A DNA stretch of 64,000 nucleotides from Pseudomonadales bacterium (GCA_965267295.1 OZ253946.1:3600338-3664337); one strand, 5' to 3'. Counted from the stretch's first letter, positions 57,757 to 59,268 are shown. Notes: generated by a model not told the origin, from the sequence alone. Made by a program: numbers and translations.

Positions 57757-59268
57757 CTATTTTGACTTTCTTCTAAGGCGAAAAAACAATCGAGCGAACG
57801 GACCTATGGCTCTATATAGCGCCAATCGAATTCTATCCATACCCTGCGGAACAACGATACTGTTGGTGATGGCGTATTCAGAAGCACCACGCCAAATCAA
57901 ATTCCAATAAATAGGGTTAACGCCTTTTCCGGTAACCGAATAATTCGAGTTTCCGATCAGGATGTGTTGCTCCGTATTCCATTGAGGCTCCAGATGCGTA
58001 AGACCTGTTTCCTCGAACCCCACCTTCTTATAGAACCCAACCATCTCCGGCCAAGAACCGACCACTACCCATGGCCGCTCTGGATGCAAAATCGTGGCAC
58101 ACGTAAACTGTAGAAGACCGGCTAAAAGGTCACCTCTGCGGTAGTCAGGATGTGTGCAAACACGAGACACCTCCATTATCTGATCGCGCCTCGGTAAACT
58201 ATCTGGCCAATCCACATAACGCTCGTGTTCCATTGGTTCATCTAGCGTGTTGAATCTTACACGCGAGGTAGCAACTGCCTCTCCGTTGTGCTTCCCAATT
58301 ACAATCCTTCCTTTGGCATCGTTGATGTCTCCCATGGATGAAAGTTCGACGGAATCATCTGAGAGATTTCCATCTGCCTTGTGCGCCAGGAACCTCAGTC
58401 TCAGAACCTCGCGATAATCTTCTTCTGTTTTGACGTAGTAAAAATCGACGGCCCGCGTAACTGACTCAAACTTGTACCCAAGCCTCCGCAGACTATCCAA
58501 TGAGTCAACATTTCCGAATTGGATCAAGTATTGGCCCAGTACGGTCTTCATATGTTCATCTACGTCAACAAATTCCACCCCGACTGAAAGGCGATCCTTA
58601 CCGCGAGCTGTTGTAAAGCCAACGCGAACCACCTTCACAGACGTGACAAAGTCACCAACGAGTGGAAAGATTGCGGTAATTCTTAGCACCATGTCTGGGA
58701 TAAGAAATTTGTTTCTCAAGCTACATATCAACTGTAGGCCGTTGAGGGAAATATCTCTGACTTGAAAGTGCATGAAGTCATTAATGACAGCTGGACTAGG
58801 GGCTACGCACGTAGGGAAATACTCGTCACTGCAAATCCATCTTGGGGAGCGCCTTTTTTCCTCCCCCCTAGTTGAATCCAAACGGTTAGATAGGCGAATC
58901 CCAGCGAGCTTGATAGCGTCATTTTCTTGGACGAGGTCGACAACCAGTCCTTCGAAGAACATTCGTTGACCGCCAATGGTGAGCTCTAGGTCTATTGGAC
59001 TACCTTTTTGCCATTCGATCTCTTGTTCATCACAAACGAGTTCGACTCCAAGCGGGCTCATCCTCCAGACTTTTACGGCATGGTAATCCTCGCTAGCATC
59101 ATCGCTTCTCATGCGAACACGCGCGATCACCCTATCGGTATGGCGAATATCGGCGGGTTGAACTTTCTGATGTACTGCAGAGAAATCTAAGTCGTACTTA
59201 GATCGCAATTGATCCATTTCGTCCAATAAGACTCTCCGCGTTCGGCTTAATGAGCCGATCGTAAGCAT
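57757..59268 (-). CDS. tandem PilZ domains fused to a GNAT-related N-acyltransferase (island)
   Basis: PilZ-1 is RHTDR ... RMSPLG (degenerate). PilZ-2 is RRSPR ... DISLNG (canonical RxxxR / DxSxxG, nt 58738-58854). The C-terminal ~230 aa resemble the N-acyl amino acid synthase/OlsB branch (EDYREVLRLRF ... GDINDAKGRIVIG ... EVSRVCTHPDYRRG). The start may be ATG 59217. Confidence 0.8.
   Translation of the reverse strand: MLTIGSLSRTRRVLLDEMDQLRSKYDLDFSAVHQKVQPADIRHTDRVIARVRMRSDDASEDYHAVKVWRMSPLGVELVCDEQEIEWQKGSPIDLELTIGGQRMFFEGLVVDLVQENDAIKLAGIRLSNRLDSTRGEEKRRSPRWICSDEYFPTCVAPSPAVINDFMHFQVRDISLNGLQLICSLRNKFLIPDMVLRITAIFPLVGDFVTSVKVVRVGFTTARGKDRLSVGVEFVDVDEHMKTVLGQYLIQFGNVDSLDSLRRLGYKFESVTRAVDFYYVKTEEDYREVLRLRFLAHKADGNLSDDSVELSSMGDINDAKGRIVIGKHNGEAVATSRVRFNTLDEPMEHERYVDWPDSLPRRDQIMEVSRVCTHPDYRRGDLLAGLLQFTCATILHPERPWVVVGSWPEMVGFYKKVGFEETGLTHLEPQWNTEQHILIGNSNYSVTGKGVNPIYWNLIWRGASEYAITNSIVVPQGMDRIRLALYRAIGPFARLFFRLRRKSK

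Follow-up and report, generated by a model that had tools for sequence, protein, structure and literature searches.

Closest described systems

In Myxococcus xanthus, the protein PixB (MXAN_2604) combines two PilZ domains with a GNAT-family domain (Gcn5-related N-acetyltransferase) and binds cyclic di-GMP (c-di-GMP) in vitro, and its authors proposed that c-di-GMP raises the transferase activity (Kuzmich et al. 2021, PMC8316039). Nas343 and Nas354, both of metagenomic origin, join a FeeM-like type I NAS (N-acyl amino acid synthase) to PilZ and make N-myristoyltyrosine in E. coli; their catalytic Glu is essential, and c-di-GMP control of lipoamino-acid synthesis was proposed for them (Thies et al. 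2016, PMC4897644). NasP is cited in PMC4897644 and PMC8762209 as a cAMP-activated N-acyl amino acid synthase. The present analysis concerns a gene at positions 57757-59268 of a 64,000-nucleotide stretch of Pseudomonadales bacterium DNA (GCA_965267295.1 OZ253946.1:3600338-3664337), called the window throughout, which encodes two PilZ-type barrels followed by a FeeM-type GNAT domain (the PilZ-FeeM protein, or PilZ-NAS). A preliminary description of the window had named no characterised fusion of PilZ with an acyltransferase; PixB and Nas343/Nas354 precede it.

On sequence grounds, the protein is a member of a large, uncharacterised family that has an architecture of its own and sits in a conserved operon peculiar to it. 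It is read here, at somewhat better than even confidence, as a second-messenger-gated lipoamino-acid synthase that would form the biosynthetic core of a four-gene operon (cyclase, PilZ-NAS, MMPL transporter, methyltransferase) and whose product would be methylated and exported. The conserved operon, with its six-transmembrane (6TM) cyclase, MMPL transporter and methyltransferase, is the most informative feature of the locus and was not mentioned in the preliminary description.

Domain architecture and family of the PilZ-FeeM protein

The gene and its parts lie in the window as follows.

57757..59268, minus strand: gene of the PilZ-like / PilZ / FeeM-type GNAT protein; longest open reading frame (ORF), 503 amino acids (aa) from the first ATG
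58894..59166, minus strand: barrel 1, PilZ-like; aa ~35-125; AlphaFold2 strands 47-125; RHTDR 42-46 (R42, R46) and RMSPLG 69-74
58516..58860, minus strand: barrel 2, canonical PilZ; aa 137-251; R139xxxR143, D172xS174xxG177 and C-terminal helix GQYLxQF; Pfam 137-249
57934..58461, minus strand: FeeM-type GNAT (N-acyl amino acid synthase branch); aa ~270-445; Pfam FeeM 317-425 and Acetyltransf_5
57757..57933, minus strand: C-terminal three-helix extension and stop codon; aa 446-503; amphipathic basic tail; AlphaFold2 helices 452-468, 477-487 and 489-502

The ORF was recovered where the preliminary description had placed it, on the minus strand with 503 aa, and all of the strings quoted there, both the four barrel motifs (RHTDR, RMSPLG, RRSPR 139-143 and DISLNG 172-177) and those of the GNAT domain, stood at the residues given. 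The probable true start is a TTG at 59226, preceded at 5 nt by a Shine-Dalgarno-like GGAGAG, which gives a protein of 489 aa and matches independent 489-aa gene calls for a 99% identical homolog (P0001) and for locus L046. Counted from this TTG, there is a 29-nt overlap with the end of the gene upstream, including its stop.

On the 503-aa protein, Pfam assigned PilZ (PF07238) to residues 137-249 with E=1.5e-11 (44.9 bits, cut-off 22.5), FeeM (PF21926) to residues 317-425 with E=1.4e-7 (31.9 bits, cut-off 27), and Acetyltransf_5 (PF13444) to residues 322-386 with E=1.9e-5 (25.7 bits, cut-off 22.4). PilZ and acyltransferase profiles were thus both significant and above the curated cut-offs, and the earlier placement of the GNAT in the branch of N-acyl amino acid synthases and OlsB was borne out by FeeM and Acetyltransf_5. 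Of the window's 177 six-frame ORFs with 120 aa or more, just 3 had the combination RxxxR...[DN]xSxxG, the PilZ-FeeM ORF being one of them. Because the motif pair is rare among window ORFs and conserved in homologs, it was judged not to be a product of chance.

An AlphaFold2 model built from a 104-sequence alignment reached a mean predicted local distance difference test (pLDDT) of 91.1 and a predicted template modelling score (pTM) of 0.80. Its two beta-barrels comprised strands 47-125 and 143-233 and were followed by a long helix at 238-251, after which came a GNAT fold at ~275-445 and three C-terminal helices, and the inter-barrel linker (132-134), just N-terminal of RxxxR 139-143, was short and of low confidence. 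Searches of the protein and of the family profile against solved structures with phmmer and hmmsearch returned only weak matches to GNAT motif A and did not retrieve FeeM 2g0b; by sequence, the protein is remote from all solved structures.

A word-indexed search recovered full-length homologs of 480-516 aa with PilZ and FeeM in at least 159 clusters, none of them functionally named. Exhaustive profile search of 1.84 billion representatives gave 1,240 matches at E<=1e-3, of which 505 reached E<=1e-30, and nearly all of the best 150 matches shared the ~490-aa architecture. Species-representative genomes of GTDB were scanned with family-specific peptide patterns, and all 39 loci found came from metagenome-assembled genomes (MAGs), none from a cultured organism. 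Their host labels were mostly Pseudomonadales, Ca. Azotimanducaceae or Gammaproteobacteria, and one distant family member occurred in an Oxalobacteraceae MAG. Fusions of cyclase, PilZ and NAS into one protein were looked for among the homologs and none was found; the N-terminal extensions of long homologs resemble miscalled starts.

Receptor module

Residue conservation was scored in an alignment of 104 homologs at 42-59% identity and in 123 more distant representatives that are mutually no more than 50% identical; percentages below refer to the latter. In barrel 2, R139, R143, S174 and G177 were invariant and D172 was kept in at least 90% of the 104 homologs. Among the representatives, R139 and R143 occurred in 93 and 94%, [DN]172 in 86%, and S174 and G177 in 93 and 98%, respectively; 115 of the 123 retained RxxxR and 100 retained the two motifs together. 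This pattern indicates that the c-di-GMP-contacting motifs of the second barrel are under strong purifying selection. The helix that links this barrel to the GNAT was among the most conserved segments, with Y247 at 98% and F251 at 94%. In the C-terminal extension W455 and G447 occurred in 96 and 87%, and basic tails were common to all members; such a tail might associate with the membrane.

The first barrel was a marginal Pfam PilZ match, as a second stretch appeared at E<=1 and was gone at E<=0.1. Its RxxxR was not conserved family-wide (R42 56%, R46 16%) and R or K stands where the D/N of motif 2 is expected; its [R/K]xSPxG face was kept, with S71 at 91%, P72 at 96% and G74 at 96%. The preliminary description had called this domain degenerate, which agrees with the marginal profile match, yet at the level of the predicted structure and its Foldseek matches it is a real PilZ-like barrel.

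In Foldseek searches of the model against the PDB, both barrels aligned with MrkH 5ejl/5kgo, with E down to 2.8e-9, and also with YcgR 5y6f, PP4397 3kyf, MotI 5vx6, VCA0042 (PlzD) 2rde and PlzA 7mie, over 208-249 columns. Judged from the model, the tandem is best described as a YcgR/MrkH-type two-barrel receptor module. The Pfam model of the YcgR N-domain had no match on the protein at E<=1, and the likeness to YcgR is structural only.

Acyltransferase domain

In the GNAT domain, R292 and D317 were conserved in 99%, R336 and E366 in 93% and G417 in 98% of the representatives, and E366, a candidate catalytic residue, lies on strand beta4 of the AlphaFold2 model. Pfam searches of 30 family members at E<=0.1 gave FeeM in 30/30 (best 5.8e-12), Acetyltransf_5 in 30/30 and PilZ in 28/30, and weak matches to Acetyltransf_1/7/10 in many of them. 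Foldseek matched the C-terminal half to FeeM 2g0b (E=3e-6 to 1.4e-5, TMt 0.65-0.74) and also to the carrier-protein-dependent SbzI 8zt3 and the N-acyl homoserine lactone (AHL) synthase MesI 6wns. The acetyl-coenzyme A (acetyl-CoA) loop Q/R-x-x-G-x-G/A reads R-R-x-D-L-L in the family, according to weak alignments to PaiA and serotonin N-acetyltransferase, and the replaced glycines would fit a donor that is not acetyl-CoA in its customary binding mode.

Membership in the LuxI/AHL-synthase group, considered for the LuxI-like residue pattern R/D..D/R/ExSR, was rejected, as Autoind_synth (PF00765) matched 0/30 members at E<=0.1 and the fold match to MesI 6wns was the only link. NCBIfam models for PEP-CTERM/exosortase-associated NAS and OlsB equivalogs gave no relevant match on the protein at E<=1.

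Operon and upstream cyclase

The other three genes of the operon surround the PilZ-FeeM gene on the same strand.

59198..60634, minus strand: 6TM-helical linker-class III nucleotidyl cyclase; 478 aa; upstream, overlaps the PilZ-FeeM gene
55491..57743, minus strand: MMPL / HAE3-type transporter of the resistance-nodulation-division (RND) superfamily; 750 aa; downstream, 13-nt gap; Pfam MMPL E=7e-24
54698..55474, minus strand: class I S-adenosylmethionine (SAM)-dependent methyltransferase; 258 aa; last gene of the operon, 16-nt gap; Pfam Methyltransf_25/31/23/11

The window neighbours were searched by tblastn in 43 homologous loci (L001-L043), and five more distant loci were added. In 43/43 loci the cyclase was the gene immediately upstream, in the same orientation, and the PilZ-NAS gene followed the cyclase, often overlapping it, in 46 of all 48. 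Downstream, MMPL and methyltransferase genes were present in most of the 43, with some relocated or inverted and some loci having the methyltransferase only. Three of the five distant loci kept the cyclase (L044, L045, L049), with the order cyclase-MMPL-NAS-methyltransferase in L049; L045 carried an EamA-like transporter and a MatE exporter in place of MMPL. The remaining two (L048, L050) had no cyclase within 7 kb, and their PilZ-2 motifs were intact. In L050 (7001-9205), the 734-aa protein P0241 is a PilZ-PilZ-FeeM protein with a C-terminal methyltransferase fusion homologous to the window methyltransferase (blastp 6e-6), and neither cyclase nor MMPL was nearby. Because the two are fused in P0241, the PilZ-NAS and the methyltransferase are tied to one pathway.

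The transporter resembled the NCBIfam models HAE3 (1.6e-36) and HpnN-like (3e-16), both under their cut-offs, and the best NCBIfam likeness of the methyltransferase was BioC, also under cut-off. A scan for consensus promoters and terminators gave sites no more frequent than in shuffled sequence. Going by the searched literature, this conserved pairing of a PilZ-NAS is new, its partners being a class III cyclase of the 6TM type, an exporter and a methyltransferase; no description of a fixed genomic coupling of a 6TM cyclase to a lipid-forming enzyme was found there.

The cyclase was matched by phmmer to P. aeruginosa CyaB 3r5g (E=6.9e-9). Aligned to CyaB, its residues D262, D304, K301, T371, N378 and R382 represent the metal Asp pair, the substrate-specifying Lys with Asp/Thr, and the transition-state Asn and Arg, and all six were conserved in nearly all of 44 orthologs. 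In its AlphaFold2 model (pLDDT 91.6), a 6TM bundle is joined to the cyclase domain through a long helical linker. Foldseek matched CyaB (TMt 0.77-0.79), M. tuberculosis Rv1625c 7yzk over the whole length, and half of mammalian AC9. Pfam Guanylate_cyc (PF00211) did not match the window cyclase and gave weak, sub-threshold matches in 37/83 orthologs (best E=0.0035), and neither MASE2 nor another named membrane domain matched. Class III membership was assigned because of the PDB sequence match and the fold; JGI and NCBI annotations name the orthologs class 3 or adenylate/guanylate cyclases. It is thus predicted to be a catalytically competent membrane sensor.

Within the membrane domain of the cyclase, D57, R72, Q111, W26, W68 and W123 were invariant. 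Such polar and aromatic residues suggest a specific role beyond anchoring.

In the distant loci L044 and L045, the base-specifying Lys (K301) of the cyclase is replaced by Q or T, and RxxxR is unchanged in the PilZ-NAS partners. Since the PilZ motifs persist in loci without a cyclase, the PilZ ligand probably does not come from the cyclase. Experiments have shown that lipids are received by the 6TM domains of Rv1625c and of mammalian adenylyl cyclases (PMC12505454, PMC11606603), and by analogy the cyclase may sense the state of the membrane or the product of the pathway itself.

Proposed function and alternative explanations

The proposed mechanism starts from the observed domain composition, motifs, fold, selection on ligand-site residues and operon linkage, and its further steps are put conditionally. 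The two N-terminal barrels would together form a YcgR/MrkH-type receptor, in which c-di-GMP would be bound by the R139xxxR143 linker and D172/S174/G177 of barrel 2, with barrel 1 closing over the ligand through its conserved SPxG face. The rearrangement would be relayed by the GQYLxQF helix to the FeeM-type GNAT and would switch catalysis on. The GNAT would then use E366 as general base to move a long acyl chain onto an amino acid's amine; acyl-acyl carrier protein (acyl-ACP) is the probable donor, in line with FeeM and with the Nas enzymes expressed in E. coli. The N-acyl amino acid would be methylated by the operon methyltransferase, possibly to a methyl ester, and the MMPL/HAE3 transporter would remove the product from the cytoplasmic membrane. 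The 6TM cyclase, which is translationally coupled, would add a second nucleotide signal, probably cAMP, distinct from the PilZ ligand. N-acyl amino acid methyl esters are known marine bacterial natural products and, by analogy, a plausible product class.

A nucleotide-gated acyltransferase, as the preliminary description had proposed, is a reasonable reading, supported by the strict conservation of the c-di-GMP-contacting motifs. As homologs without a cyclase keep the PilZ-2 motifs, cAMP, cGMP, cCMP and cUMP are less likely ligands than c-di-GMP.

Several observations weigh against a c-di-GMP-gated lipoamino-acid synthase. No motif matches for GGDEF, EAL or HD-GYP genes were found in the window or cassette, and no c-di-GMP riboswitch or other Rfam element in cassette, leader or window at E<=1. 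The near-obligate linkage to a cyclase making a product other than c-di-GMP is not accounted for by the model. The FeeM sequence match is modest at 31.9 bits, and ordinary acetyltransferases score similarly to FeeM in Foldseek, so that the fold alone does not discriminate. The equivalence of E366 to FeeM Glu95 and Nas354 Glu103 is that of a candidate, going by its position on beta4 and its conservation, and the substrate and regiochemistry of the methyltransferase are not readable from sequence. Ligand, acyl donor, acceptor and product are all inferred for the family. One of the two functions of PixB did not require c-di-GMP binding (PMC8316039), so that catalytic gating is not guaranteed.

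Among the alternatives, it is improbable that the GNAT is a PixB-like signalling acetyltransferase that uses acetyl-CoA on a protein or small metabolite, with exporter and methyltransferase functionally unrelated. The coarse architecture of PixB is similar and PMC8316039 treats it as an acetyltransferase of unknown substrate; several of the top Foldseek GNAT matches are short-chain enzymes (SACOL1063, PaiA, YjcF), and weak Acetyltransf_1/7/10 matches occurred in many members. However, FeeM and Acetyltransf_5 were the best and universal Pfam matches (30/30), the canonical acetyl-CoA loop is replaced, and lipid or drug exporters and a methyltransferase are linked to the gene in a conserved way, the methyltransferase being fused on in one homolog. 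The layout of PixB also differs, with RxxxR at ~121 and ~331.

An equally improbable alternative keeps the barrels and removes the switch. Proteins of the YcgR/MotI type act by protein-protein contact, and the barrels could likewise serve mainly in docking or localisation to the cyclase, the MMPL transporter or the membrane, with c-di-GMP controlling assembly or nothing and no allosteric switching taking place. The gene overlap suggests co-translation and possibly a complex with the cyclase, and the SPxG face of barrel 1 is conserved, yet without RxxxR. In addition, the acetyltransferase domain of PixB alone was enough for one function, for which c-di-GMP motif mutants were neutral (PMC8316039). 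Against this reading stand the pTM of 0.80 for the single chain, which implies a defined packing of barrels and GNAT in the model, the high conservation of the PilZ-2-GNAT linker helix, as expected for intramolecular coupling, and the existence of members without a cyclase or MMPL.

The least probable alternative is a self-contained cyclase-effector unit that resembles NasP in function and employs a repurposed PilZ fold, whose ligand would be cAMP or a different cyclic mononucleotide made by the neighbouring cyclase. This alternative can draw on the upstream and often overlapping cyclase of 46/48 loci with its conserved catalytic residues, on the missing GGDEF/EAL genes and c-di-GMP riboswitches in cassette, window and leader, and on NasP as a cAMP-activated precedent. 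In its disfavour, both PilZ-2 motifs are canonical and under strong purifying selection, they stay intact without a linked cyclase (L048, L050), RxxxR stays where distant cyclases change Lys301 to Q/T, and PilZ domains are not known to bind a cyclic mononucleotide.

Neighbouring genes and base composition

Two divergent genes lie upstream of the operon.

61530..62930, plus strand (divergent): multi-TM histidine kinase; 466 aa; HisKA and HATPase_c; hydropathy TM segments 47-213
60909..61445, plus strand: divergent ORF; 178 aa; between operon and histidine kinase; membership of the system uncertain

The histidine kinase, with ~6 TM segments, lacks a soluble sensor domain, no response regulator gene adjoins it, and a homolog lay near the cassette in most of the 43 loci (tblastn); it is loosely associated. 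No similarity was found between the membrane domains of cyclase and histidine kinase, and a shared sensor domain was rejected. The 178-aa ORF had no Pfam match, nor had three positional equivalents, and it was detected by tblastn in just ~10/43 loci at 28-36% identity.

The flanks of the cassette (window 53448-54711 and 62920-63990) carry genes of the inositol monophosphatase family, RidA/L-PSP and Amidohydro_2, which are syntenic in many MAG loci. By this synteny, the genome of the window appears to be one of the same uncultured gammaproteobacterial group. Cassette GC content (54698-62930) was 0.485, compared to 0.609 in the flanks (1-54300 and 62920-63990), and GC at third codon positions (GC3) was 0.49-0.54 compared to 0.66-0.79. 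A recent genomic island, as the step from 61 to 49% GC might imply, was rejected. The same flank genes occur in many genomes, the deficit was present in 34/34 loci with syntenic flanks (mean GC 0.486 vs 0.588, GC3 0.521 vs 0.661), and it tracks host GC (r=0.91) over hosts of ~39-69% GC. The GC offset is persistent and sits in a positionally conserved cluster. Among the possible causes are a xenogeneic silencer that targets the cluster, replacement that recurred in the lineage, and an expression-linked bias.

Other genes recurred near some cassettes. A PNP_UDP_1-family gene (nucleoside phosphorylase/nucleosidase) was located just upstream of the cyclase/PilZ-NAS pair in L044 (3278-4033) and L045 (5777-6526), and a ManC-type mannose-1-phosphate guanylyltransferase nearby in L044 (1859-3274) and L050 (5484-6884). 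The nucleosidase could recycle methylthioadenosine or S-adenosylhomocysteine, if SAM chemistry is involved, or act on nucleotides; with two loci each, both recurrences may be coincidence. In several genomes, three genes stood together a few kb from the cassette, coding for a protein of beta-lactamase fold, an exporter of the MatE type and a PlsC-type acyltransferase (PF01553).

L001 1-3281, L003 14047-17515, L004 8345-11841: trio of beta-lactamase-fold protein, MatE exporter and PlsC-type acyltransferase; the window equivalent would fall past 64000

PlsC-type O-acyltransferases are the OlsA-like partners of OlsB-type N-acyltransferases in ornithine-lipid synthesis, and by this analogy the PlsC-type enzyme might share the pathway of the PilZ-NAS.

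Significance

The second messenger c-di-GMP is the main signal of the switch between sessile and motile life. If the proposed model of a gated lipoamino-acid synthase holds, there would be a direct link from c-di-GMP to the making and exporting of a lipid with a surface-active or signalling role in abundant, uncultured aquatic Gammaproteobacteria, and genes would be assigned to N-acyl amino acids, possibly to their methyl esters, for which the marine natural-product paper gives no biosynthetic genes. The ligands of adenylyl cyclase membrane anchors are a long-standing question (PMC12414865, PMC11606603), and the pairing with an Rv1625c-like 6TM cyclase is the most valuable point, as the co-encoded lipid synthase offers a concrete candidate ligand. 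Single NAS genes have given biosurfactants and antibiotics in E. coli (PMC4897644), so that the family should be easily examined by heterologous expression.

A more far-reaching and rather doubtful extension is a self-contained lipid-signal module, in which the gated synthase would give a methylated lipoamino acid, similar to the methyl esters of N-acyl amino acids known from marine bacteria, that is exported by MMPL and sensed by the 6TM domain of the cyclase (possibly also by the histidine kinase), leading to cAMP. If true, this would be a synthase-receptor pair akin to CqsA/CqsS or LuxI/LuxR that joins c-di-GMP, a lipid autoinducer and cAMP, and it would give a 6TM adenylyl-cyclase anchor a candidate ligand to which it is linked genetically.

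Comparison with known systems

The PilZ-FeeM protein shares with PixB two PilZ domains placed N-terminal to a GNAT-family domain. In PixB, which is longer, the RxxxR motifs lie ~210 aa apart (mutants R121A, R331A) compared to 97 aa here, and both PixB PilZ domains are without the Ser of motif 2, whereas PilZ-2 is canonical here and S174 near-invariant. PixB acts on motility and development with an unknown substrate, and no cyclase, MMPL or methyltransferase genes are mentioned for it in the passages of PMC8316039 consulted. No Myxococcus locus was found in the GTDB scan, which used family-specific peptide patterns. Orthology to PixB was rejected on motif spacing and pattern.

Nas343 and Nas354 have the reversed order, with the NAS N-terminal and a single PilZ C-terminal, compared to barrel-barrel-NAS here. 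They came from a Flavobacteriaceae-dominated biofilm, with the genes presumably outside a biosynthetic operon according to their authors (PMC4897644), and, unlike the locus described here, have neither a two-barrel module nor a linked cyclase.

The NAS part resembles FeeM (2G0B) and OlsB-type enzymes in its Pfam matches over cut-off, its fold match and the conserved acidic residue on beta4. FeeM itself is a stand-alone protein of ~190 aa, whereas members of the present family also have the receptor at the N-terminus and a helical extension of 60 aa at the C-terminus. NasP is said to sense cAMP through a cNMP-binding domain. The protein studied here had no Pfam match to such a domain and carries PilZ barrels instead, with a cyclase encoded next door, so that the sensor of NasP differs.

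As in YcgR, MrkH, PlzD, PP4397 and MotI, a PilZ-like barrel, an RxxxR linker and a canonical PilZ barrel follow one another. Proteins of the YcgR/MrkH type are stand-alone adaptors or transcription factors, whereas the module here is fused to an enzyme, and the barrel orientation in the model differs from those structures with a root-mean-square deviation of 12-16 A (Foldseek).

The cyclase is like CyaB (3R5G) in having a class III catalytic domain whose six canonical residues are all present and fit the K/T type (IIIb-like, adenine), and like Rv1625c/Cya (7YZK) and AC9 in the topology of 6TM domain, helical linker and catalytic domain. Unlike CyaB and Rv1625c, it is too divergent for the Pfam Guanylate_cyc threshold.

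Rv0998/MSMEG_5458 follow the same logic, with an N-terminal nucleotide-binding domain gating a GNAT, an analogy also cited by the PixB authors (PMC8316039). They differ in their cNMP-binding fold, cAMP ligand and protein lysine acetylation, and were absent among the sequence and fold matches listed. Overall, the PilZ-FeeM protein is distinct from PixB, Nas343/354 and NasP.

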